Below, in pieces: positions 1,776 to 55,389 of a stretch of 64,000 bases of DNA. How positions within the stretch are numbered: the first letter of the stretch is position 1; each line of letters begins with the position of its first letter. Location: contig JAJYIE010000003.1 in the NCBI GenBank assembly GCA_021790255.1, forward strand, positions 68 to 64,067, written 5' to 3'. Origin of the DNA: a bacterium (GTDB lineage: Bacteria > Patescibacteriota > Microgenomatia > Daviesbacterales > UBA10151). The notes under the pieces were generated by a model. The model searched no databases, was not told the origin of the DNA, and saw only the letters and a list, made by a program, of their open reading frames with translations. Position numbers and translations under genes: made by a program.

Positions 1776-2495
1776 TTAATTCATGATGTAAATATCCACA
1801 AAGTGGCTGGTCCAATTTTTGGTCTGGTCGTTATCAAATCCCAAGTCGACCATGTTGCCATTAACGCCGCCGCCGGTATCACCCGCTAAAGCCGTGCCGT
1901 ACCCAGGGACATAAAATTTGCTGCCCAGTTTAATGACTGAGGGATCAACCGCCGCAATGCCTTTCCCGGCCTGAAGACCTAAAGAGGTCCGTCCGGTGCC
2001 GCTGCATGTTGAGCAAAAAGGCGTATAGTCGGTGGCCCAGACATGTAATTTCTCCCAATAGCTAATCTGTCCGTCAGGGGTATCAAGTGTGTGCCAGACG
2101 ATTTTAGTGCCGCGGGAGATGATTTTATTTGTGGGACTAATGGTTTTAGTGGCCGTAACTTCCCGCTGGTACTCCCGGCCTTGGTAATAAGTTATTTTAA
2201 TTGTGCGGGTTATTTTACCGAGTTCGCCATCCTGAGCGACCGTTTGTGTGCCTGCTTCAGCATTCGGATCATCCTGGTAAACAGTTTTAAAGGGGATATC
2301 TTCACTTTCCTCTGTGAATTTGCTGGTAAAACGTGACTCTGTGGTGACCGGAGGTAGTGAAGCTGCCAGAGTAACGCGAAGATGTGGAGCGGTCAGATCG
2401 GCTGAGGTGTTTTGCCGGCTGATTGTTAAAGCAACCATAACCAAAACCAGTCCGAGAATAGTTTGCACCTTAATGCTGGCAAATCCGTCTAACAT
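1776..2495 (-). CDS. G5 + 3D-domain cell-wall-binding protein (YabE/YocH-like)
   Basis: N-terminal signal/TM. C-terminal 3D-domain signature (TASG...VAVDPSVIKLGSKFYVPGYG...A.DTGGGV.GN.VDL) is preceded by a G5-like segment. Confidence 0.6.
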   Translation of the reverse strand: MLDGFASIKVQTILGLVLVMVALTISRQNTSADLTAPHLRVTLAASLPPVTTESRFTSKFTEESEDIPFKTVYQDDPNAEAGTQTVAQDGELGKITRTIKITYYQGREYQREVTATKTISPTNKIISRGTKIVWHTLDTPDGQISYWEKLHVWATDYTPFCSTCSGTGRTSLGLQAGKGIAAVDPSVIKLGSKFYVPGYGTALAGDTGGGVNGNMVDLGFDNDQTKNWTSHFVDIYIMN

Positions 2496-4372
2496 CAGGC
2501 ATCCAGCCAGTCATCCTCATCGGCACTTATGCTGATATTATCCAGGAACTGTTCCCCTGGGGGACCGGCTATCTGGCTATTACTTTCTATCAAATCCTCT
2601 GGGATGTCAATAAGAAAGCGGGAAATTAAGTTATTGGAACGGGTACCAAAATAAAGCCTTTGGCGGGTGCGGGTTAAAAACAGCAAATTTTTAGCCCTGG
2701 TCAGACCGACATAACAGAGCCGCCGCTCTTCTTCCATCTGGGCCGGGTCTAAAAGACAGCGGGAATGGGGGAATAAACCCTCTTCCATGCCGACAATAAA
2801 CACCACCGGCCATTCCAACCCTTTGGCCTGGTGCAAGGTGGTCAAGGTCACCGCATCTTTGGTACTCTTTTTCAGCTTCTCATCTGAGGAATATTCACTT
2901 TCCACCAGGGCAACATTTTCCAAAAACTGCGCCAGCTGAGGAGTTTGCTCCGCTACCGACCGGATCTCTTTGACGTTTTCCACCCGTGCCTTGCCGAGCT
3001 CGGTTCCGTCATCAATGTACTCCAGATAGTTTGTTTTCTCCACAACTTTGTCCAGCAGTTCCAAAGTGGAATAGTCCGAAGGACTGGTTCCTATCTCAGA
3101 AACTATCTCCCAAAAATGAGCGGCTCGGGTCTTGCCAATTTTTTCGATACGGCTTTTAGAAACTGTATCGGCCGGGTTTAAAATCAGCCGCAGATAGGCA
3201 AGGATGTCTTTGATCTCCTTGCGTTCATAGAAGCGGATACCGCCTATTAGTATATATGGAAGGTGATGTTTTAGAAAAATTTCTTCGAGGATCCGAGACT
3301 GGGCGTTAGTACGGTACAGAACGGCAAAATGAGATAATGGTAGTCCCAACTCGGTAACTTTCTGCACCACAAACTCTGCCTCCTCCTCTTCATTTTTTGC
3401 CTCTGTAACATTGATTTTTTCACCGCGGGGGTTGTCGGTCCAAAGTTTTAGGATAGGATGGGTGGTGTTTTTAGAGATAACAGAGTATGCAGCATCAAGG
3501 ATATTTTGAGTGGAACGGTAGTTTTGCTCCAGGTTGAATACTTTTGCCTGCGGGTAATCGTTTTTGAAGTTGACAATGTTTCGAAAATCGGCGCCGCGGA
3601 ACATATAAATTGACTGGGAAGCATCTCCCACTACGCAAATATTACGGTAGCGGCTAGCCAGCATTTTGGTTAAAAGGTACTGGACGGGGTTTGTGTCCTG
3701 ATACTCATCCACTAAAATATAGTGGAAACGGATTTGGTAGGAAGCTAGGGTAGCCGGATAATTTTGAAAAATCTTAACGACAAGGAGCAGGAGGTCGTCG
3801 AAATCAACGGCTTTGTTTTTTTCCAGGATTTTTTGATATTCCAGGTAAATTTTGGCCACCTGCTCCTGATAAAATCCTCTGGCAAAACGGGGATATTCCA
3901 AGCTACCGATCATCTCGTTTTTGGCTCCAGAGATAGTTTGCCTGATGGCGAAAGGGGAATTTTTTTGGGTAGAAATATCCAGGGCGGCCATAGCCTGTTT
4001 GACGGCATCAATGGAATCATTTTCATCATAGATGGTAAATGATGGCGGCAGGCCGATCAGGTGACCATCCTGACGCAGGATCTTGGCACAGACGCTGTGG
4101 AAGGTTCCCATCGTAGGAAGTGGATTGTAGGTTGCTGGTTGTTGGTTGATAAGGTTGAGGATGCGGGTTTTCATCTCGTTTGCTGCTTTGTTGGTGAAGG
4201 TTAAACAAAGAATGCCTTCCGGAGAAACACCATTGCTTATTAAATAGGCAGCTTTGTAAGTTAATACTCGGGTTTTCCCACTACCTGCTCCTGCCAGAAT
4301 AAGCACCGGACCATCAGTGCTCTTAACTGCTCTCTGTTGGAGATCATTAAGCGATGATAGGTCGACGGTCAT
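2495..4372 (-). CDS. pcrA: ATP-dependent DNA helicase PcrA/UvrD family (SF1)
   Basis: Walker A LILAGAGSGKTRVLT, TFTNKAANEM, Walker B VDEYQDTN, and further UvrD motifs. 625 aa. Confidence 0.85.
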   Translation of the reverse strand: MTVDLSSLNDLQQRAVKSTDGPVLILAGAGSGKTRVLTYKAAYLISNGVSPEGILCLTFTNKAANEMKTRILNLINQQPATYNPLPTMGTFHSVCAKILRQDGHLIGLPPSFTIYDENDSIDAVKQAMAALDISTQKNSPFAIRQTISGAKNEMIGSLEYPRFARGFYQEQVAKIYLEYQKILEKNKAVDFDDLLLLVVKIFQNYPATLASYQIRFHYILVDEYQDTNPVQYLLTKMLASRYRNICVVGDASQSIYMFRGADFRNIVNFKNDYPQAKVFNLEQNYRSTQNILDAAYSVISKNTTHPILKLWTDNPRGEKINVTEAKNEEEEAEFVVQKVTELGLPLSHFAVLYRTNAQSRILEEIFLKHHLPYILIGGIRFYERKEIKDILAYLRLILNPADTVSKSRIEKIGKTRAAHFWEIVSEIGTSPSDYSTLELLDKVVEKTNYLEYIDDGTELGKARVENVKEIRSVAEQTPQLAQFLENVALVESEYSSDEKLKKSTKDAVTLTTLHQAKGLEWPVVFIVGMEEGLFPHSRCLLDPAQMEEERRLCYVGLTRAKNLLFLTRTRQRLYFGTRSNNLISRFLIDIPEDLIESNSQIAGPPGEQFLDNISISADEDDWLDA

Positions 4373-5202
4373 AAAGCAAATCCTTTAATAAACTTTTGAA
4401 ATTTTCGCTCCATATATAATTCTGTGTCGTGGTACATATAGCCGAATAATTTCAAAGAAGCTTTATGCCCGCAACTCAAAGTATAATAAGGAGTCTGGTT
4501 ATTTGAGAACCTAGTCTGTATATTACTCGCATAGAGTTCATGTAAAACGCCTGATAGTATGTTATGTATTCCTTGAGCCATATTTAAACTGGCAGTGTAA
4601 AATATTGTAGCAACTGGGCTGCGATATTTATTTGTGTTTCTAAGAAAGACGCAACCATCTCCGTCAAAATAACCCCTTAGAAAGTGACGAACTAGATTAT
4701 TCGGTATTTTGGGGAAATTTAAGGTTAACCTTTTTCTCTCTGAAATACCAAGTTTTAACAAATCATCAAAGACCACGCGATCACAAATTCTTAAACTAAA
4801 GGATATTTTGTTGTTATTTCTGTGGTTCTCATGCACTGGACCGTTATACTCTAAAGTTAATTTAATTTTTTCTATAATATCCCGATCGTCGCATGCGATA
4901 TGTAATATATGGGATCGACCACTATGGCAAATATTGCCGTCGGCTGCAATAAAACCTAAAGTATAAGCCATATTTGCTGACCATTTCTTGAAGAAGTTGG
5001 AGTTGACGGAGTACTTTTTAACTTTTTGCTGAATAGGTAGATATCTTACTCTTGACTGAATAGAAGCCGGAGTACGCCTAATATCTTTTCCCATTTGCTT
5101 GTATGTAAGCTTATGTACATTTGCTTTTAAAAAATTAATCTCTTGGGAAGTCCATGGGTGAGTGAATTGATTTGGCATATAAGTATTATAACAAAGCCGC
5201 AA
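4369..5202 (-). CDS. free-standing LAGLIDADG homing endonuclease (double-motif)
   Basis: Two LAGLIDADG-type motifs (LGFIAADGNI and LRGYFDGDGCV). AT-rich relative to neighbours. Stop overlaps the pcrA start by 4 nt. Confidence 0.8.
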   Translation of the reverse strand: MRLCYNTYMPNQFTHPWTSQEINFLKANVHKLTYKQMGKDIRRTPASIQSRVRYLPIQQKVKKYSVNSNFFKKWSANMAYTLGFIAADGNICHSGRSHILHIACDDRDIIEKIKLTLEYNGPVHENHRNNNKISFSLRICDRVVFDDLLKLGISERKRLTLNFPKIPNNLVRHFLRGYFDGDGCVFLRNTNKYRSPVATIFYTASLNMAQGIHNILSGVLHELYASNIQTRFSNNQTPYYTLSCGHKASLKLFGYMYHDTELYMERKFQKFIKGFAL

Positions 5203-5237: not shown

Positions 5238-5438
5238 TTACCAGAAAATTCTCGGTTGCGCTCCTTTTTCTTTGACAAGATAAGCCGCCTCGTGGGTTAA
5301 GGCCTTTGTTTTGCCGCTTCCAGCGCCTGCTAAAATCAGGGTCAGACCATCTGCGGCTTTAACAGACTCATGCTGGACGGGATTTAAGTCTGCTAAAAGA
5401 TTAGGGACGTTCATACTGAGCGTAGTCGAAGTGGGCAT
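5238..5438 (-). pseudogene. N-terminal fragment (66 aa) of a UvrD/PcrA-type helicase, truncated right after Walker A
   Basis: LILAGAGSGKTKALTHEAAYLVKEKG is paralogous to the pcrA N-terminus. Terminates after ...PRIFW, about 35 bp upstream of the LAGLIDADG gene. Confidence 0.6.
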
Positions 5439-11044: not shown

Positions 11045-11971
11045 CTAGTGTGGTTGGGAGGATAAATAATTAACAAGTTGTTGTAGATCTTCCTGGTCCA
11101 CTTTGCCGTCCCCGTTTATGTCTGCCTGCCTTAAAAATGTCTTTTTATTGATGTTTCTTAAAAGCACGCTAAGATCCAAAGAGTTGATTGTCCCGTCATC
11201 GTTTAGGTCATATAAAGAAGTTGCGGCGACAGACTCTGCATCAAGACTCAGGTCCTTTCCCAATGTTACCGGCGGCAAAGGTTTAGCGGGCAGTGTTAGG
11301 GAAACGGAAGAACTTTTATTGCCGTCAAATATCCGCAAAGTTGCCTGGGTTGAGGAAAGAGGAAAGGCGGAGGTAAGAGCATCGTTATAGAGAGAGTTAA
11401 GAGAGAGAGCAAAGCTGCCGGCAGTTTTGCTGATAGTAGCCATTTTTTGAGCGCCGGGTATCTCCAAAGTAATGATCGCTTCATTCACCGGCTGAGAGTT
11501 GTCATCGATGATATTGCCGACAACGGGTGGAGTGGCAGAAGGCGTAATTGGAGAGGCGGTTTTGAAAGACAGCGGTTTATCGACAGGGTAAATAATTGCT
11601 CCGGAGTGAACTTTATAATAGTAGACAGTGTTCGGCGAAAGGTTAGTCAGGGTGACAAAGTGCAGCTGGTGGTTTCCCAAAGCTGTATGGTCACGGTCAT
11701 CCTGAAAAACCAAATTCAGGGAGGAGGCCGAGGTGCCGGCCTGGATAAAGCCCGGGGTCTGCTTTTCGGTTTGCCAGTAAACTGAGGCAGCGCTCCCGGA
11801 GATATTGGCTACCTCAGCTCCGCGCGGAGTAGCAGATGTGTCAGCAGAGGAGAGAAAAGTTTGCCGCAGAGGGATCAGAAGAATACCCACAATTAAACCG
11901 GTAACGATAGTAGCCAGTCCGAGAAGTGTAGGGATTTTAGATTCCAAGCTCATTGATTGCTTCCTGGTCAA
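11045..11971 (-). CDS. membrane-anchored FN3-like / dockerin-repeat protein (possible pilus-associated accessory protein)
   Basis: N-terminal TM, FN3-like segment (NLSPNTVYYYKV), and a C-terminal type-I dockerin pair (DLNDDGTINSLDLSVL...DINGDGKVDQEDL). Lies in an operon downstream of pilO. Confidence 0.6.
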   Translation of the reverse strand: MTRKQSMSLESKIPTLLGLATIVTGLIVGILLIPLRQTFLSSADTSATPRGAEVANISGSAASVYWQTEKQTPGFIQAGTSASSLNLVFQDDRDHTALGNHQLHFVTLTNLSPNTVYYYKVHSGAIIYPVDKPLSFKTASPITPSATPPVVGNIIDDNSQPVNEAIITLEIPGAQKMATISKTAGSFALSLNSLYNDALTSAFPLSSTQATLRIFDGNKSSSVSLTLPAKPLPPVTLGKDLSLDAESVAATSLYDLNDDGTINSLDLSVLLRNINKKTFLRQADINGDGKVDQEDLQQLVNYLSSQPH

Positions 11972-12119
11972 AATTCGGGTCCAGGGGTTCGATAAGCTGA
12001 CTGACTTCCGCAGGGGGAGAGACTTTTTTAGCCTGGGAATGGATGAAATCTGCCCCTATCCAGATAATGATGGTTATCAGAGTAAATATTAAAATGTAAA
12101 CAAATTGTCTTCCACCCAT
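11937..12119 (-). CDS. small single-TM protein between pilO and the dockerin protein
   Basis: 60-aa ORF with one hydrophobic helix. Overlaps its neighbour, consistent with an operon. Confidence 0.3.
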   Translation of the reverse strand: MGGRQFVYILIFTLITIIIWIGADFIHSQAKKVSPPAEVSQLIEPLDPNFDQEAINELGI

Positions 12120-12124
12120 TATGG

Positions 12125-12859
12125 TTATTCCTTATGCGCCAAAAAATAACCCTTCCCGCTTACTGAAAGTGTCAGCGGCGGAAGCGGGGCTGCATTTTCT
12201 TTTTGGGCCTGGTTTTGTTCTTCATTTTTACTGATGGTAACACTTTCCAACTTAAGTATGCGCGGAGTTTTTTCCAGGCGGTCAATAGTGTCCAAAAGTT
12301 GTCCGAAGTCCCCTTTAACTGTGTAAGTAAAACCTATCTCATCCGTGGCAAACGGGTAGCTTACACCGGTGCTTGTCAGCAGGGTAACGGGTTGAATTTG
12401 CAGGGCTGTTCCGGAAACGGTAGCGGTGTTTTCCCCTCCTACTATCCCTGATACGCTGGCCTGTTGTGAGTTTTCAATATTGGCTATCAGGTCAACAACG
12501 TTTGCCTGAAGGGGAGTGGCCCGGTCAATTTTGGCCCGGCTGTCGTTAGTCAGATTCTCGAGATTACCCTTGGCAACCTGCAAGACTTGGATCTTTTTAT
12601 CCAGGTCCCCGGAAAGCTTGCTTTTTGTGTTTATCTCATCGCGAAGCTCTGTAATGGTAAAAAGGGTGGGGCGAAAGACAAAAAGAGTGAAAAAGATGAG
12701 AGCGAGTAAGGTAAAGATAATCGGCGCTGCTGATTTAACCCCGGGATGGGTAATAATTGGCTGAAAATATTCCCAACGCTTGGGGCGCAGACTTCTACTG
12801 GCCATCTGCCTCCTTTGGGTTCGGAACGATAGAAATAGTGAAAGAGAGTTCTTTGTCAT
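12125..12859 (-). CDS. pilO: type IV pilus assembly protein PilO-like
   Basis: Single TM, then a coiled-coil and PilO-like periplasmic domain. Sits immediately after the pilN-like gene. Confidence 0.55.
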   Translation of the reverse strand: MTKNSLSLFLSFRTQRRQMASRSLRPKRWEYFQPIITHPGVKSAAPIIFTLLALIFFTLFVFRPTLFTITELRDEINTKSKLSGDLDKKIQVLQVAKGNLENLTNDSRAKIDRATPLQANVVDLIANIENSQQASVSGIVGGENTATVSGTALQIQPVTLLTSTGVSYPFATDEIGFTYTVKGDFGQLLDTIDRLEKTPRILKLESVTISKNEEQNQAQKENAAPLPPLTLSVSGKGYFLAHKE

Positions 12860-13388
12860 AGGATAGGCTGTTTAGAGTAGTTTGCTTGAAAGAACCGCTG
12901 CCTTTAAAATGCTGCATAAAGGAGGCCAGCTCGACGGTAGTAGGAGATGTCCCTGTAACTGTCATAACGTTTTGCTGAGCAGAATCCAGCGACAAAGCAA
13001 AGCTGATGCTTGAAACTGTTATATTTTTGGGGGTAATTTGGGCCACACCCCGGACAGCCTGTGTAAATCGAGGGTTGGCTGCCTTAAGCTGTTTTACCTG
13101 GAGAAGTTGGTATTGAACCTGCCGGATTTCCTGTTCCTGCCCCTGCATAGCTTTCAGAAAATCGACTTTGTGTTGAATTTCACTGTTAAGATCAGCAATT
13201 TGGGCGTCCAGCTGATAGCGGTACACAAATGCCGCAATAACTCCCATTTCAACTGCAATTACCAGGAATCTTCCGACAGTGAGGAGCCATTTTGTAAATC
13301 GGGCCTGCAGGGTAAGGATATCTTCTCTTTTGTGTATCAGGTTAATCTTATACAGGCTGGTTAAAGGGCTTTTTAGTGAGGCAGGCAT
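12795..13388 (-). CDS. pilN: type IV pilus assembly protein PilN-like
   Basis: Conserved N-terminal INL segment, TM, coiled coil. Typical PilN size and architecture. Confidence 0.55.
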   Translation of the reverse strand: MPASLKSPLTSLYKINLIHKREDILTLQARFTKWLLTVGRFLVIAVEMGVIAAFVYRYQLDAQIADLNSEIQHKVDFLKAMQGQEQEIRQVQYQLLQVKQLKAANPRFTQAVRGVAQITPKNITVSSISFALSLDSAQQNVMTVTGTSPTTVELASFMQHFKGSGSFKQTTLNSLSYDKELSFTISIVPNPKEADGQ

Positions 13389-13723
13389 ATTAGAAATTCC
13401 CGCTGCAGGAGCGGCTCCATACTTATTTTATGTCCTCAGCTTTTTTGTTGCAAGCTGGATAATCTCTCGACGCGAAGGCTGAGGAGGGGAAGGTTCTATC
13501 CAATCGGCTGGGCGCTCTTTTTAGTCGATTCATTTTGAGCCTCGCATAACCAACTGGATCGCGCATAATAACCATTACTGCTGAACTGGCAGCTGGTGAA
13601 AATGGCTCCACCTCACTTCCTAATACTCCGGGTAATCTTTGTTCAGAAAACTCTCGAACCTTTTTCTACCCCTAGCTGTCTATTCTGAGAAAACAATCTC
13701 ATCAGCTTGAGAACTGGCGCTAA

Positions 13724-13906
13724 TCAACTGATAAATGGTGGAGCCGCCACCCACCCTAAAAAGACGAACTGGTGCTGCAGGGGGGAGTTGCTGGTATGCT
13801 CGATGAAAAAATCTAAAAGTTCTGCTTTTTCCGGATCCACTTCGGAGTAGTATTTAGCCAGGTATTTATCCGGATAAAACCGGTCGTAGTCCTTCAGAAG
13901 TTCCAT
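13724..13906 (-). pseudogene. N-terminal remnant of an NNMT/PNMT/TEMT-family SAM methyltransferase
   Basis: FYPDKYLAKYY resembles the F.PRDYLEKYY start of that family. The ORF stops after 60 aa and about 330 bp downstream is ORF-free. Confidence 0.3.
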
Positions 13907-13912
13907 GCCGCT

Positions 13913-14152
13913 TTATTTGGCTGTGGACAATTTGGAGAGCCTCGACTTTAGCCTGGCAGCCTTGTTGGCATGGATTAAATTAACTTTGACGGCTTTATCC
14001 AAAGCACTGGAAAGTGCGCTCAGGTTTTTCTTATTCGGAGTGCGCCGTGCAGTTTTAAGTATTTTTTTCAATGAAGCCTCCCGCTTACTGTTGTGAGCGG
14101 TGCGGGTTTTATCTTTGCGCGCCTTTTTTATAGCTGATTTAATAATAGGCAT
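13913..14152 (-). CDS. rpsT: 30S ribosomal protein S20
   Basis: MPIIKSAIKKARKDKTRTAHNSKREASLKK is a typical bS20 sequence. Confidence 0.85.
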   Translation of the reverse strand: MPIIKSAIKKARKDKTRTAHNSKREASLKKILKTARRTPNKKNLSALSSALDKAVKVNLIHANKAARLKSRLSKLSTAK

Positions 14153-41687: not shown

Positions 41688-42596
41688 TTAGGACATGACC
41701 TTGGAAACAAACTGGATAGGTGTCTGCAAGTCTAAAGACAAGTGTAAACGAAAATTATTGTAGTAATCAATATATTCCCTTAAGTCTTTCTTGATAGTTT
41801 TTTCTTTAGGCAATACTCCATTAAAACATTCTTCCTGAATAGTTCTGTTAAATCTTTCAATATGGGCATTGTCATTAGGTTTCCTAATGCTGGAATGTCT
41901 CAGTTGAATGGAAGATCTGTAGAGTAGGTAGGTAAACCCGTCCTTAAATTCAGGCCCATGATCTGTTTGAAGCATTTTGAAGTTAAATCCTAAATACTTT
42001 TGAGCATTTTTAACTACTAAGTAACTAATGCTTTGTTTTAATTTAGTTTGATACTCAGCATATGCCAACCTTGAGGAGAAATCAATTAGGCAGTAGATGT
42101 AGTATCTTGATCCATCACCCCTCATTACATGGATGGTATCCATTTGCACTAGATCTCCTGGTGATTTAGCTTCAGGTCTAGGGTAGCAGCTCTTTAAAAA
42201 CCTAGATAGTTTTTTCTTTCTGATTAACCCTTCTTTTTTAAGTACCCTGCCAACAGTTCTGACACTGATTTTGTATCCTTCAGAGATTAAATGAGCATGA
42301 ATAACTGGAGCACATCTTTTGTATTTTCTTCTCAACTCAGTAATTCTTTCAACCAGCTGATCAGATGTCTGATGAGGGTGATGGTTTGGAGCAGAGGATT
42401 GTGTAGAGATGAAAAGTATTCTGTGGTCTTTGGGAAATTTCCTCACCCACTTTGTAATAGTTGCCCTTTGTACACCATACATCCTGGCAACTGTAGCTTT
42501 TTTCAACCCACCCTTAACTACAAGTTTGGCTGCCTCATATCTGGCTTTGGCAGCATATGGTGAAGATGTATATGCCATAACTGGTAAGTTTGCCAC
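41688..42596 (-). CDS. IS481-family DDE transposase (HTH + rve integrase core)
   Basis: N-terminal HTH (ATVARMYGVQRATITKWV), DDE core (QMDTIHV...IDFSSR...LQTDHGPEF...NAHIERFNRT). Confidence 0.8.
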   Translation of the reverse strand: MANLPVMAYTSSPYAAKARYEAAKLVVKGGLKKATVARMYGVQRATITKWVRKFPKDHRILFISTQSSAPNHHPHQTSDQLVERITELRRKYKRCAPVIHAHLISEGYKISVRTVGRVLKKEGLIRKKKLSRFLKSCYPRPEAKSPGDLVQMDTIHVMRGDGSRYYIYCLIDFSSRLAYAEYQTKLKQSISYLVVKNAQKYLGFNFKMLQTDHGPEFKDGFTYLLYRSSIQLRHSSIRKPNDNAHIERFNRTIQEECFNGVLPKEKTIKKDLREYIDYYNNFRLHLSLDLQTPIQFVSKVMS

Positions 42597-49042: not shown

Positions 49043-51478
49043 ATGAGTTTTCTAGATGATCTGGCTGCCCGCCTCCCTTTTAAGCTTAAACGTCGAGCCG
49101 CTGAGGCTCAATATTTTTTTGCTGTAAATATCAGCCTTTTTCAGGTCACAGCCGCAGTCTGGGAAATTTTTAACAACCGGCTGGAGATTAACGGTCAGGC
49201 AACATTACCCTCTGAGGGAACAGGTGAGCTGGTAGAAAAAACTTACCAGGCTTTAGACCGCGCAGTTGGGGCACTTGAAGTGGAACCGGAGAAAGTGCTG
49301 TTCGGAGTGCCGGACTCCTGGAGCGATAAGGAAGATCTGCGCGAACCATACCTGAAACTGCTGCGAAAAATGCTCAAAGAATATGAGCTGCAGCCTTTGG
49401 CGTATGTAACTACCACTGGAGCGATTTCTTATCTGCTACAAAAAGAAGAAGGCATTCCGCCGACGGTTATCCTGCTTGGAATCGGAGACTCTGTTGAAGC
49501 AGCGCTGCTTTCCGCTGGTAAAGTGGTGGAAAGTCATTCGGCACGGGGGGAGAACTTACTGGATAGTGTAGGAAAAGTAGTCGGACAGTTTGCTGAAATG
49601 GAGTCATTGCCATCCCGGGTTTTGCTATATTCTACCTCCTCTGATGCGGATCTAACTAAAGCACGGGATCAGCTGATGTCTTATCAATGGATACAGAAAC
49701 TGTCTTTCCTGCACTTTCCCAAGATTGAAGTTTTAGAAGAAGGAACAGCCCTGAAAGCTGTGGTTTTAGCCGGAGCGGTGGATTTGTGCCCGCAGGTTGA
49801 TCTGCGCCACAGCTTTACTGCAGGTAATTTATCCGGAACCGGTGGAGAAAGGCTCAACGGATCAGGCGCGCGCAGCTTCGGGCAAAGTTTGGCAGGAGCA
49901 AGGCCGCTTACAGATTCCGACACAAGGCAAGCAGAAGAAGCGGATGAAGTCAGCAAACACCCGGCTGGCGCCGGTTTTATTCAGGGCGATATCCGTAATT
50001 TTAAGTCTGCAAGAGCAGCAGACTCGGAAGATGATTTGCCAGCCGGAGGGAAACCCCGCTTTTCAGTTGGGACTTCTGATGAGGAGATGACAGATATGGA
50101 GCGTGAAGATTTAGATGACGACAAATTGATGGGTCCGGATAAGGAAGAAGAGATGCTAAGCGAAGAGGAAGAGGAAGGGATTTACGCGCCCCTACCGGGG
50201 CAGGTACACCAGGGTCTTATGCAACCCGCACCGGTTAGTGAAACTTCAGCTCTGCCGGCATTGTGGTTGGGCCGGTTGCAAAGGGCAGTGCAGGGGTTAT
50301 CTTTTCCTATGTTAAAAGGAGGTATGGGAGCATCGTGGAAGCTTTTGGCTCCCTTAGGCCTACTGCTGATTTTGCTGGCAGTTTATATTTTTTATCCCAA
50401 GGCTACGGTGACAGTTTTTGTCCAGCCACGGACTCTGGAGAAAAGCGCGGAGATTGTGGCAGATCCGGCAGCCACAGCGGTGGATGAGCAGAACATGATT
50501 ATCCCGGGCAAGGTGGTGGAAACTGCTGTCAAGGGATCAGGAACAATTGCCGTTACCGGCCAGAAAGAAGTTGGCGATCCAGCAAAAGGGCAGGTGGTCA
50601 TTTACAACCTGACGGAAAATCCTCAGTCTTTCTCTCAGGGGACTGCCCTGTCTTCTGATTCCGGCCTGAAATTTACCCTGGATACCTCAGTAAGTATTGC
50701 TTCCCAGTCTTCAACGATAGGCGCCGATTTTACGCAAACTATTAAACCTGGGAAGTCTGATGCAGTTGGGATGACGGCAGTTCAGATCGGACCGGAGGGC
50801 AATCTGCCGGCCGGTAGTCAGCTGACGGTCGACAGCAAATCCAAATCTGAGGTGGTAGCCCGGGTAGAGGAGGCTCTTTCCGGCGGTACCTCTAAACAAG
50901 TGACCGTTGTTACGGCAAATGATCAGGCAAAACTCAAAGCTCAGGTGCTGGACACACTGCGCCTACAGGCTGAAACGGTGCTAAAAGGGTCAGTCAATGG
51001 CGACCAGCAGGTGATCAGTGAAGCCCTGATGGTCACTGACAGCAGCTTTGATTTTAATAAGGAAGTGAACGATCAGGCCAGCCAACTAAGCGTTAACGCC
51101 ACAGCCCACTTTAAAGGCACGGCATATTCCGAAGCAAACCTGCGCTCTCTCGTGTCAAAGCTTGTCTCTACGGATATTCCGTCCGGATACTCTCTGGATT
51201 TGCAGAGTACTGAGACCCAGGCCGGTGTTTCCCGGGTGGAAAAAGACGGCAAGCTGGTATTTCAGGCACAGTTCAAAGCCGAACTGTTACCGACACTAAA
51301 CCTTGATACCCTGAAAAGCAGTATCGAGGGCAGAAGCATAGCCGATGCAAAGGCAAGTCTGAAAAATATGGATAATGTCATTGATGCGGATGTCAAGATT
51401 AACCCTCCCCTACCAGGGCCACTGCAGCGCCTGCCCCTTTTCGGCAGTCATATTAATATTGATGTTACCCCAAAGTGA
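49043..51478 (+). CDS. large membrane protein: degenerate FtsA/PilM-like actin-fold N-terminus + acidic linker + 1 TM + about 380-aa extracytoplasmic domain
   Basis: VILLGIGDSVEAALLSAGKV parallels the FtsA/PilM phosphate-2 region (VLVDIGGGTTD) but lacks the catalytic Asp/Gly-rich residues. TM helix is LLAPLGLLLILLAVYIF. Confidence 0.55.
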   Translation: MSFLDDLAARLPFKLKRRAAEAQYFFAVNISLFQVTAAVWEIFNNRLEINGQATLPSEGTGELVEKTYQALDRAVGALEVEPEKVLFGVPDSWSDKEDLREPYLKLLRKMLKEYELQPLAYVTTTGAISYLLQKEEGIPPTVILLGIGDSVEAALLSAGKVVESHSARGENLLDSVGKVVGQFAEMESLPSRVLLYSTSSDADLTKARDQLMSYQWIQKLSFLHFPKIEVLEEGTALKAVVLAGAVDLCPQVDLRHSFTAGNLSGTGGERLNGSGARSFGQSLAGARPLTDSDTRQAEEADEVSKHPAGAGFIQGDIRNFKSARAADSEDDLPAGGKPRFSVGTSDEEMTDMEREDLDDDKLMGPDKEEEMLSEEEEEGIYAPLPGQVHQGLMQPAPVSETSALPALWLGRLQRAVQGLSFPMLKGGMGASWKLLAPLGLLLILLAVYIFYPKATVTVFVQPRTLEKSAEIVADPAATAVDEQNMIIPGKVVETAVKGSGTIAVTGQKEVGDPAKGQVVIYNLTENPQSFSQGTALSSDSGLKFTLDTSVSIASQSSTIGADFTQTIKPGKSDAVGMTAVQIGPEGNLPAGSQLTVDSKSKSEVVARVEEALSGGTSKQVTVVTANDQAKLKAQVLDTLRLQAETVLKGSVNGDQQVISEALMVTDSSFDFNKEVNDQASQLSVNATAHFKGTAYSEANLRSLVSKLVSTDIPSGYSLDLQSTETQAGVSRVEKDGKLVFQAQFKAELLPTLNLDTLKSSIEGRSIADAKASLKNMDNVIDADVKINPPLPGPLQRLPLFGSHINIDVTPK

Positions 51479-52904: not shown

Positions 52905-53981
52905 ATGGAACTATCACCTTTCAAACTAGAACGCTATTTTGCTAGGTATGAGTTCTCTGCTAAATATTTACTGCCGCCTCCGATTGCGACGGTTTGTGCC
53001 AGCAAGATCTTATCGTCCTATCGGACCCCGAAATCAAGCACCTTTGGGATAATTTGTTTAGGCTATACCGAGTCACGCGGTTTACCACTACTGCGCGAGG
53101 AAATAAGCAAGATTTATCGGGAACTTCAGCGGATGATGTTCTGGTTATTGCTCCGGAAGAGGGAATCTTTATCGCCATGAATACAATTTTAGAACGCGGA
53201 GACCATTTAATTTGCACTTTCCCAGGTTGCCAATCCCTTTATATGAAATAGCTCAGGGGCTCGGATGTGAAGTAACGAAGTGGCAGCCGGAAGAGGAAGA
53301 GAGATGGTGGTTTAACCCGGAGTTTTTAGAAAGCAGCATTCAATCAAACACTAAATTAGTGATGGTTAATTTTCCTCATAACCCAACCAGATATTTCCCT
53401 TCCAGACAGGATTTTGACCGGATAATTGAGATTGCCCGAGCCCATAATTTATATCTTTTTTCGGATGAGATGTATTATTTGTTGGAGTACGACTCTTCCG
53501 ACAGATTACCTGCGACAGTTGAAGTTTATGATCAGGCTGTGTCGCTTTTTGGTATGCCCAAAACTTTCGGTATGGCTGGGATTCGTCTGGGATGGGTAGT
53601 AACAAAAAACAGGCAGATGTTGGGAAAGTGCTGATCTTTAAGGGCTACACCACAATTTGTAGCAGCGCTCCTTCGGAGATTTTAGCCCTGGTTGCCTTAA
53701 GAGCCAAAGACCGAATTGTTGCTTAGCATCTTAATTTGATTAAAAGTAATTTAGAGTTGACTGAGCAGTTCTTTGCGAGTCATCAAGATCTGCTTAGCTT
53801 CATATATCCGAAAGCAGGAACGATCTCTTTCCATAAACTATTTTCCAGCCATCGTGCATTGAACTTTTGTGAGAATCTGGTGAGCGAGACTGGGATAATG
53901 TTACTGCCGTCAACGGTTTATGATTTTGACGATAAACATTTTTGTTTAGGTTTTGCCGGAAGAATTTCCCCGAAGCCCTAG
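52905..53981 (+). pseudogene. class I/II PLP-dependent aminotransferase pseudogene (at least 5 frameshifts + 1 in-frame stop)
   Basis: The protein can be reconstructed only by hopping frames: LSPFKLERYFARYEFSAKYLL / DLIVLSDPEIKHLWDNL / LGYTESRGLPLLREEISKIY / SADDVLVIAPEEGIFIAMNTILERGDHLICTFPGCQSLY / EIAQGLGCEVTKW...GMAGIRLGWVV / LIFKGYTTICSSAPSEILAL...* / LNLIKSNLE...LGFAGRI. Confidence 0.75.
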
Positions 53982-54774
53982 CTGTTTTTGCGCAGTATTT
54001 GGATGAGAAGTCATAAAGCTAAACCATTGCACAAAACGCCAATGTGGCAGGCTACCTCTGAGAATCATTTAGAAGATTTTGGTAAAAGGTATTAAACCCA
54101 TATTTGATCTCAGCGCTGATTGACTTGGCGGTTTGGTTCAACTGCTGATTCCAGGAGCGGCGGTAGTTGCGAGATCTAAGACAATCCATGCTTGATGCGC
54201 ATGACCGGAAGTTATGAGGCTCTAGGTTGTGACCGCGCCTGAAAGTTGATTGATTCGCTTTTTTCAATTCATGGTTGATCAACATCTGCTCGTGATCTCT
54301 GTTCATATTCTAGAGTATATACGAAGACGGCAAAATTTGTAAATCCAGGTTTTTAAATAGTAAGTCAGATATGGTAGGTATATTCTGTAAAAAAGAGGTG
54401 TGGGGATTTTGGGGAAGCTAGTTTGCTTACTTCAGTCACTCCGGGTATCAGATGGTCTTTGGTGATCTCCTTAAGCTTTTTCCAAAAACATTCACCAATT
54501 TTGGAATCTGTTACAAGCTCTCCCTGTGGGTTTTTTCCGGTAAAGACGTGGCAATAAACCTCGCCCGGTTACGCCGGTAGAAAGACAAGCGGACGGATCT
54601 TTTAGGGATAAGAAAGGGTCAGTTTATCAAGCAGCACTTTACAACCCAACTTATTTCTACCATCCGGAAGAGATCTTTGACTACTTCTCAATTCCGCCGA
54701 TTCCAGACAAGAGTTAACAGAACAAGATGTAGATTTACCTACTGAGACAGATTTAGTCTATCGGCAGAGAGGTG

Positions 54775-55389
54775 TTAACCGGCGCGTTTGATTTCTTTAG
54801 AAGTAATTTTCCCGTCACGATTAACCTGGTAAACGTAAACTTCCCCTGTGGCGATTTCTAGCTCGGGGATTCGCTCGTCAGGGATATTTTCCAAAAATTT
54901 AACCAAGGCTCTGAGGGAATTACCGTGGGCGGAAATTAAGACATTTTTCCCGGACTTAAGCTCTGGTAAAATTTTTTCCTGATAAAAGGGCACCACCCGG
55001 GTATAGACATCTTTAAGCGACTCTCCGTGGGGTGGCGGACAGTCCCAACCGCGCCGCCATTTTAAAAACTGCTCCTCTCCAAACTCCTCTTTAATTTTCC
55101 ATTTATTTTTGCCAGTCAAGTCACCGTAGTCACGCTCATTAAGCGCCGCGTCTTTTGTGGCCGGCAGTTCAGGCTGACCCAAAACCTGCTCTATCTCGTC
55201 CAAAGTTTGTTGGGCTCTTTTTAATTTGGAAGTAAAGGCAGTATCAAAATGGATGCCGATCAGTTGCCGCCCGGCTTGCCGTGCTTCCTGCCGGCCTCTT
55301 TGTGTTAACCCCACATCCATCCACCCTGTCCACAAACCTTTAGCATTCCACTCCGACTCGCCATGTCTTATTAAAGCTAAATATGCCAT
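54775..55389 (-). CDS. gpmA: 2,3-bisphosphoglycerate-dependent phosphoglycerate mutase (short form)
   Basis: LIRHGESEWN catalytic His motif and dPGM-family similarity. Confidence 0.85.
   Translation of the reverse strand: MAYLALIRHGESEWNAKGLWTGWMDVGLTQRGRQEARQAGRQLIGIHFDTAFTSKLKRAQQTLDEIEQVLGQPELPATKDAALNERDYGDLTGKNKWKIKEEFGEEQFLKWRRGWDCPPPHGESLKDVYTRVVPFYQEKILPELKSGKNVLISAHGNSLRALVKFLENIPDERIPELEIATGEVYVYQVNRDGKITSKEIKRAG

Follow-up and report, generated by a model that had tools for sequence, protein, structure and literature searches.

Introduction

Two questions are raised by a block of genes at positions 11045-13912 (minus strand) of a 64-kb stretch of contig JAJYIE010000003.1 (GenBank assembly GCA_021790255.1; an uncultured, ultrasmall bacterium of the Patescibacteriota, Microgenomatia, Daviesbacterales): what a dockerin-bearing membrane protein does directly behind the type IV pilus genes pilN and pilO, and whether the absence of pilM reflects the loss of a gene. 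The whole stretch is referred to below as the window, and all coordinates are positions in it unless another locus is named. It is common for pilM to precede pilN in bacteria, and an earlier note, made from the sequence alone, had taken a 60-aa stub and an ORF-poor stretch upstream of pilN as the normal site of pilM. Judged by comparison with related loci, the block is a four-gene operon conserved across the Microgenomates of the candidate phyla radiation (CPR), in which rpsT is followed by pilN, pilO, a small gene and a gene of FN3 type, and which in none of the loci compared includes pilM. Here we present the organization of the block, its conservation, and the readings of its function that were weighed.

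Organization of the block

Read from 5' to 3' on the minus strand, the block consists of pilN, pilO, a gene for a 60-aa protein and a fourth gene (302 or 308 aa), the product of which is composed of one transmembrane (TM) segment, an FN3-like domain, another beta-sandwich and, at its end, a type I dockerin. Its features and its upstream flank are as follows, with the evidence in brackets (ORF, open reading frame; AF2, AlphaFold2).

13913..14152, minus strand: rpsT (ribosomal protein S20), conserved upstream neighbour of the cassette (79-aa ORF; Pfam Ribosomal_S20p on the identical gene in L001)
13578..13906, minus strand: pseudogene of an NNMT/PNMT/TEMT-family methyltransferase (three-frame translation, fragment coordinates, joined-peptide Pfam score)
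13389..13577, minus strand: spacer ahead of pilN, no recognisable content (promoter, Rfam and tRNA scans)
12795..13388, minus strand: pilN, 197 aa (Pfam PilN, profile match to 3jc8, AF2 model)
13332..13349, minus strand: PilN N-terminal motif K-I-N-L-I-H, counterpart of the PilM-binding INLLP (alignment of 12 orthologues; 5eou peptide)
12125..12859, minus strand: pilO, 244-aa ORF, 226 aa from the ATG at 12805 (weak Pfam PilO; ortholog profile vs. PDB)
11937..12119, minus strand: 60-aa single-pass membrane protein, core member of the cassette (ortholog comparison; conserved tail)
11045..11971, minus strand: fourth gene, 308-aa ORF, 302 aa from the probable start at 11953 (Pfam, AF2 model, shared architecture of homologues)
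11852..11932, minus strand: fourth protein, N-terminal TM helix with the motif I-P-T-L-L-G (helix of the AF2 model; alignment)
11558..11830, minus strand: fourth protein, FN3-like domain of the purple-acid-phosphatase N-domain type (Pur_ac_phosph_N; Foldseek)
11288..11527, minus strand: fourth protein, second beta-sandwich, CarboxypepD_reg-like in orthologues (strands of the AF2 model; weak Pfam matches in orthologues)
11057..11215, minus strand: fourth protein, type I dockerin (Dockerin_1; calcium-binding loops at 11174-11209 and 11087-11122)

All four ORFs are located where the earlier note had placed them, and its reading of them as PilN-like, PilO-like, 60-aa TM and TM-FN3-dockerin proteins was upheld by the ORF list and Pfam. 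Regarding the starts, the ATG at 12805 is probable for pilO, as assigned by the gene caller on the identical contig L001, and gives an overlap of 11 nt with the end of pilN; the fourth gene, read from 11953, overlaps the 60-aa gene by 17 nt. Hydropathy analysis found one N-terminal hydrophobic segment in each of the four products, i.e., all are single-pass membrane proteins, and their genes overlap or abut. The G+C content of the block (0.46-0.48) is the same as that of its surroundings. Promoter-like sites occurred at chance level (3 found vs. 4.2 expected), and the site TTGCAA-17-TAAAAT at 13453-13425 in the spacer ahead of pilN is of this kind; the terminator scan was likewise at chance level, and Rfam and tRNA scans of the block yielded no family and no tRNA.

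PilN, PilO and the 60-aa protein

PilN of the block is assigned to the PilN/GspL family. The profile search proposed in the earlier note bears out this identity: against Pfam PilN (PF05137), the window protein passes narrowly (23.5 bits vs. a gathering score of 22.8), and orthologues score 34.4 and 35.8 bits. With a profile of 12 PilN orthologues, the best match among solved structures was Myxococcus xanthus PilN (3jc8, E=0.004). The AF2 model, with a predicted local distance difference test score (pLDDT) of 83, consists of a disordered N-terminus, a long TM/coiled-coil helix (residues 27-104) and an alpha-beta-beta-alpha-beta-beta core, and AF2, Foldseek and hydropathy together recover the plan expected of PilN (a short cytoplasmic N-terminus, one TM segment, a coiled coil and a ferredoxin-like core). 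The modelled core is nearest to the periplasmic domains of PulL, EpsL and XcpY (GspL), at a target-normalised TM-score (template modelling score) of 0.67-0.77, with PilO and EpsM lower in the Foldseek list.

A highly conserved motif at the N-terminus of PilN is the binding site of PilM (PMC5805733). The N-terminal motif of the 12 orthologues is (I/V)NL(L/I), with Asn16 invariant and Leu17 nearly so; it reads KINLIH in the window copy and VINLLP in the Woesebacteria copy (L014). The reference for the INLLP motif is the PilN peptide MARINLLPWREE, which is fused to PilM in a solved Pseudomonas aeruginosa chimera (PDB 5eou); the window copy departs from INLLP at the last two positions.

PilO is placed in the PilO/GspM family by profile comparison. 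Its identity, for which a profile search had also been proposed, was confirmed through its orthologues, with the window copy itself sub-threshold: a profile of 14 PilO orthologues matches solved PilO structures (3jc8, E=9.3e-6; 2rjz, E=3.9e-4; 5uvr, E=0.045), and the orthologue of locus L004 (28% identical) scores 33.1 bits against PilO (PF04350) and 30.9 bits against T2SSM_b. The window PilO (12125-12859) also contains two insertions that are absent from 13 of 13 orthologues, the Gly/Ser/Thr-rich SVSGIVGGENT and NEEQNQAQKENAAPLPP.

The 60-aa protein (about 58 aa in the operon as conserved across the Microgenomates) is found in every cassette, L058 included, and has no Pfam or NCBIfam match. 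It ends in a conserved tail, EP(L/I/V)xPxFD, and its identity is about 50% across seven Daviesbacteria-type loci and about 20% in distant loci.

The fourth protein

Pfam and the structure model uphold the description of the 308-aa protein as a TM anchor, an FN3-like domain and a type I dockerin pair. Dockerin_1 (PF00404) was matched at 45.7 bits (E=7.5e-12; gathering score 22.9) and the FN3-like Pur_ac_phosph_N at 39.8 bits (E=6.7e-10). Both dockerin repeats are present, with DLNDDGTINSLD and DINGDGKVDQED as their calcium loops and helices at residues 264-272 and 293-305 of the AF2 model, and a profile of the family matches solved cellulosomal dockerins (2y3n, E=2.6e-11; also 4fl4 and 1daq). 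The AF2 model (pLDDT 88.3) comprises a TM helix (residues 14-40), beta-sandwiches at 50-137 and 150-227, and the two dockerin helices; the strands of the second sandwich are modelled at pLDDT >90, and weak CarboxypepD_reg matches to it were found in the L014 and L056 orthologues. The Foldseek matches are proteins with FN3 domains in tandem and N-domains from purple acid phytases or phosphatases.

Homologues have the same architecture. Of the best 150 representatives at 50% identity, >100 matched over the full length in a single stretch. Within the motif of the TM helix, P14 and T15 are invariant in 21 Daviesbacteria-type sequences; IPTLLG is kept in L014, P0026 and P0028 and lost in L015, L056, L057 and P0027.

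A scan of the window and of fetched loci with a local dockerin profile revealed no second protein of this kind. A search with a profile of the dockerin only returned proteins of 53-111 aa only, from many phyla and many on very short contigs, and gave no view of other dockerin or cohesin proteins of Daviesbacteria; it placed type I dockerins in many non-cellulolytic lineages, including the CPR group Doudnabacteria. The cohesin partner that the earlier note had suggested looking for was not among the ORFs of the window that were scanned with Pfam.

Conservation of the operon and exchange of the C-terminal module

In species-representative genomes, the full-length relatives of the fourth protein come from Candidatus Daviesbacteria (Microgenomates group, Patescibacteria). 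A search through the ORFs of all fetched loci gave one gene order for every locus of the Daviesbacteria type, namely PilN, PilO, the small protein and the FN3 protein. One Daviesbacteria cassette lies in the stretch 190,963-211,877 of the near-complete contig JAQTZF010000001.1 (1,096,538 bp). The cassette recurs in a more distant version in one Woesebacteria genome and one further metagenome-assembled genome, and matches to the PilN profile extend it to Roizmanbacteria and other contigs. Fifteen distinct cassette loci, the window included, were counted in Daviesbacteria, Woesebacteria, Roizmanbacteria and relatives. In 14 of the 15, the fourth gene stands behind pilO and the small gene, with its product only 23-26% identical across lineages; it is the dockerin version in ten (window included), a longer version without dockerin in four, and absent from the remaining locus (L058).

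Woesebacteria, Roizmanbacteria and related contigs keep the N-terminal body of the protein (TM helix, FN3-like domain and second sandwich), but where Daviesbacteria have the dockerin they carry a Big_13 Ig-like domain, then a linker rich in Pro, Thr and Ser, and at the C-terminus a hydrophobic segment. Orthologues of this kind include the following.

L014, 10001-11380
L056, 7343-8818
L057, 7289-8584
proteins P0026-P0028

In six of seven non-dockerin sequences, PV(S/T)G stands ahead of the terminal hydrophobic segment. By its sequence, this PVTG-plus-hydrophobic tail looks like a sorting signal, and none of the NCBIfam anchor models recognises it as a known one. Both kinds of C-terminus are means of fixing the far end of the protein within the envelope.

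The region between rpsT and pilN

The gene upstream of pilN is rpsT in 15 of 15 loci, and pilM is at that site in 0 of 15. Because rpsT precedes pilN, without pilM, in all 15 loci, the layout without pilM is, on this comparison, ancestral for the lineage and not the outcome of decay. The gap between the two genes is only 8-75 bp in 12 of the loci. The other three have an occupied spacer, each with different contents: a methyltransferase pseudogene in the window (13389-13912), a PsbP-like (PsbP_2) gene in L002 (5499-6590) and an opposite-strand gene of 145 aa in L013 (7902-8339). The L002 gene was considered as a divergent PilM and rejected as PsbP-like. The rpsT-pilN spacer is a hot spot of insertion.

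The stub in the window is a 60-aa ORF at 13724-13906, which on its own scores 12.4 bits against NNMT_PNMT_TEMT (PF01234). It continues in another frame with RVGGGSTIYQL, a motif of the S-adenosylmethionine-binding type, and through two stops. The joined three-frame peptide (110 residues, 13906-13578) scores 39.5 bits (E=5e-10) over profile positions 13-105 of 261, which agrees with the likeness to an NNMT/PNMT-type methyltransferase seen earlier. With one frameshift (near 13757) and two in-frame stops (13680-13682 and 13620-13622), there is no intact full-length NNMT/PNMT/TEMT reading frame, and the remnant is truncated after about 40% of the family length. The stub is assigned to a frameshifted, truncated methyltransferase pseudogene, a lineage-specific insert between rpsT and pilN. 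The stretch of about 330 bp that had been described as free of ORFs proved to hold pieces of this pseudogene to about 13578 and a 62-aa GTG ORF without family match, leaving only about 190 bp (13389-13577) without recognisable content.

A history in which pilM once stood upstream of pilN and decayed to the stub and an ORF-free stretch, as implied by the earlier note, has only position in its favour. The remnant is, however, of the NNMT methyltransferase family and not an actin-like PilM, 12 of the related loci have no more than 8-75 bp between rpsT and pilN, and the other two filled spacers hold unrelated genes. Loss of pilM at this site is refuted by the related loci, and we attach next to no probability to it.

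Search for pilM and other pilus genes

The block lacks pilM, as had been stated, with no such gene among its ORFs according to Pfam. The Pfam scan covered 42 ORFs of the window, 36 of them outside the block, and found no pilM, pilB, pilC, pilT, cohesin or sortase; motif scans covered all ORFs of the window and found no prepilin-like N-terminus in any of them. A pilN adjoining pilM, which is a usual but not an obligatory feature, was found neither in the block nor in the window nor in the 15 loci. A phmmer search of about 5,300 ORFs of at least 40 aa (window and 55 loci) with a P. aeruginosa PilM query gave no match, and a scan for the actin-like N-terminal motif gave unrelated matches only. 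A metagenome scan with CPR PilB yielded 23 loci, 0 of which had a PilM-like motif or a match to PilN or PilO. In the CPR loci inspected, genes for pilB-type ATPases are solitary, without adjoining pilM, pilN, pilO or pilC, as follows.

L028, 2609-4327
L038, 442-2169
L055, 2212-3951
also in L059, L062 and L069

Scattered pilus genes seem to be common in the CPR. The PilM, PilN and PilO families are widespread in this radiation and are counted in its pilus set (PMC6744442), and a single pilus locus, comprising PilA, PilD, PilB, PilT, PilC and PilM, is reported for Ch65, a complete genome of the Microgenomates, with PilN and PilO not among the genes listed for it (PMC7143001). Because PilN of the block keeps the INL(L/I) motif that binds PilM, and because the pilus locus of Ch65 has PilM, we infer that pilM is encoded elsewhere, in a separate pilus locus.

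Comparison with known systems

With the type IVa PilM-PilN-PilO-PilP systems of P. aeruginosa and M. xanthus (3jc8, 2rjz, 5eou), the block shares homologous PilN and PilO of the same topology, the INLL-type N-terminal motif and an extra gene behind pilO in the position of pilP. It differs in that the operon has no pilM, PilP or secretin, stands directly after rpsT and belongs to a host without outer membrane, and in that pilO is followed by genes for a membrane protein of 60 aa and for the TM-FN3-dockerin protein, neither of them PilP or related to it.

GspC spans the membrane once and has a beta-sandwich and, at its C-terminus, an interaction domain that varies. Features shared with the GspL-GspM-GspC platform of type II secretion (PulL/PulM/PulC, EpsL/EpsM) are this plan, which the fourth protein resembles, and the fold of the modelled PilN core, which is nearest to the periplasmic domains of GspL. 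In contrast to that system, PilN of the block has no fused cytoplasmic GspL domain, there is no secretin to bind, and the fourth protein consists of FN3, a prealbumin-like sandwich and a dockerin instead of the HR and PDZ domains of GspC.

The PilMNO systems of Streptococcus sanguinis, Clostridium perfringens and the Saccharibacteria strain TM7x, which are monoderm, likewise have PilN and PilO as platform parts and neither secretin nor PilP. In these systems, pilM, pilN and pilO stand together inside the pilus locus (PMC12206443), whereas pilN and pilO of the block are set apart and share their operon with two genes specific to the lineage.

Cellulosomal type I dockerins (Clostridium thermocellum CelS, 1daq; Pseudobacteroides cellulosolvens Cel48, 2y3n) have the same two calcium-binding loop-helix repeats. 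The dockerin described here differs from them in standing on a membrane-anchored, non-enzymatic stalk beside pilus platform genes of an ultrasmall CPR host, with no cellulosome context and no known cohesin.

The presence of the PilN and PilO families in the CPR is already known (PMC6744442), as are essential surface proteins with dockerins in a cultivated Saccharibacterium (PMC10633639). Among the papers searched, none connects PilN/PilO to a membrane protein of the dockerin or FN3 kind, and none describes a layout of rpsT, pilN and pilO.

Proposed function and alternatives

The reading that we favour, and hold to be reasonably probable, is that the block encodes the PilN/PilO platform of a type IV pilus of the ordinary kind, split off from the other pilus genes, and, where PilP or GspC would be expected, two accessory proteins specific to the lineage. 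PilN and PilO would form the membrane-spanning part of the assembly platform, and the cytoplasmic INL(L/I) motif of PilN would recruit a PilM encoded elsewhere. PilP connects PilMNO to the secretin or outer layer, and a table comparing such systems places PulC in one row with it (PMC10191384). The 60-aa and FN3 proteins would take the position of PilP of diderm type IV pili or GspC of type II secretion; the likeness of the fourth protein to PilP and GspC is one of position and plan only. This protein would stand on its N-terminal helix beside PilN and PilO and project its two beta-sandwiches outward, with its far end fixed to the envelope. In Daviesbacteria, the fixation would be by Ca2+-dependent binding of the dockerin to a putative cohesin-type partner, and in the sister lineages by the Ig-like domain, the Pro/Thr-rich linker and the PVTG-plus-hydrophobic tail. 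The fourth protein probably tethers the machine to the cell envelope. The earlier note had proposed a substitute for PilP or a pilus-tethered adhesion module; the tight synteny of the four genes, with overlapping stop and start codons, speaks for this idea, which is possible, and the lack of similarity to PilP or GspC, in sequence and among the top 50 fold matches, counts against it. The family has two alternative C-terminal modules, of which the dockerin is one.

Several results weigh against the reading as a pilus platform. The window PilO alone scores 16.1 bits against Pfam PilO (gathering score 22). No match of the fourth protein to PilP (PF04351) or GspC was found in Pfam, NCBIfam, the PDB profile search or the top 50 Foldseek hits. 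No cohesin is encoded among the window ORFs scanned with Pfam, and in L058, where the cassette has no fourth gene, this gene is dispensable or has moved. Neither the window nor the flanks of any cassette (up to 10 kb) yielded a pilM, pilB, pilC, pilD or pilin gene; with no pilus genes nearby, the link to the pilus rests on homology and one genome from the literature. The neighbours of the cassette are cell-wall and housekeeping genes (MurJ, LCP, FemAB, G5/3D, SurA-like), which would fit an envelope role other than a pilus.

Because of this neighbourhood and the lack of pilus genes in it, two alternatives stay alive. The FN3-dockerin protein might be a pilus-independent protein of surface display or adhesion, which binds the host or a cohesin-bearing scaffold and is merely co-transcribed with pilN and pilO. 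Its fold, tandem beta-sandwiches with FN3 matches, is that of a generic surface stalk, and for a cultivated Patescibacterium (a Saccharibacterium), surface proteins of the dockerin, FN3 and lectin-like kinds are reported to be essential to the envelope, with binding of host glycans as their proposed role (PMC10633639); the occurrence of type I dockerins in non-cellulolytic lineages such as Doudnabacteria and the L058 cassette without fourth gene point in the same direction. Against a free adhesin, the gene keeps its place behind pilO and the small gene, which it overlaps or abuts, in 14 of the 15 loci despite a protein identity of only 23-26% across lineages, and a protein that is anchored in the membrane by its N-terminus and bears an anchoring module at its C-terminus looks more like a strut with two fixed ends. 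We consider this alternative unlikely, at roughly one chance in several. More doubtful still is a cassette that has nothing to do with pili, in which proteins of the PilN and PilO folds were recruited to a constitutive, PilM-independent envelope complex, e.g., for assembly of the wall or surface layer. The fixed site by rpsT among the cell-wall genes named above, the absence of pilus genes from the flanks of up to 10 kb around the cassettes, and the weak likeness to solved PilN (E=0.004) would agree with such a complex, but the position of the PilM-binding motif is conserved with its Asn invariant, and PilN, PilO, GspL and GspM are the best matches by sequence and fold. In addition, pilus genes of the CPR are often scattered, as the orphan pilB of other CPR loci illustrates, and PilN and PilO are part of the CPR pilus set (PMC6744442).

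The reading as a split-off pilus platform can be carried further, in a form that we put forward tentatively and hold to be rather unlikely: in wall-bearing CPR without secretin, the basal body of the pilus may be strapped to the wall or surface layer by the strut encoded behind pilO, the distal anchor of which would be interchangeable, i.e., a dockerin binding a cohesin-bearing envelope protein in Daviesbacteria and a sortase-like PVTG tail in Woesebacteria and Roizmanbacteria.

Other features of the window

Position 53212-54775 is probably a second decayed gene of the window: a 140-aa ORF there matches only positions 106-234 of 361 of the class I/II aminotransferase profile, and the next 1.1 kb or so contains no ORF of at least 90 aa. 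A LAGLIDADG_3 endonuclease ORF (4369-5202) is flanked by a full-length UvrD/PcrA helicase (2495-4372) and by a 66-aa N-terminal fragment of UvrD (about 5238-5438), which was called as a gene on the identical contig L001; the helicase is without the endonuclease in four of four loci of relatives that show the region (L002, L003, L004 and L006). An integrase/transposase of the rve type (insertion sequence element) is located at 41688-42596 (minus strand) between the genes for RNase J and FtsK. The 811-aa protein encoded at 49043-51478 has no confident family, with a sub-threshold Baseplate_J-like match of 19 bits.

Significance

Type IV pili are thought to be central to the attachment of CPR bacteria to their hosts and to feeding, and how a monoderm pilus machine without secretin and PilP is anchored in the envelope is poorly understood. 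For annotation, the comparison corrects an error, as a pilN without adjoining pilM is the normal layout in these genomes and not a sign of gene loss. The conserved and widespread operon couples PilN and PilO to two membrane proteins, which are concrete candidates for the missing outer link, and the exchange of the dockerin for a tail resembling a sorting signal leads to a testable prediction of how this link is anchored. If the tentative extension given above is true, the strut would be a monoderm functional replacement for PilP-PilQ and would represent a structural, non-cellulosomal use of the cohesin-dockerin pair.

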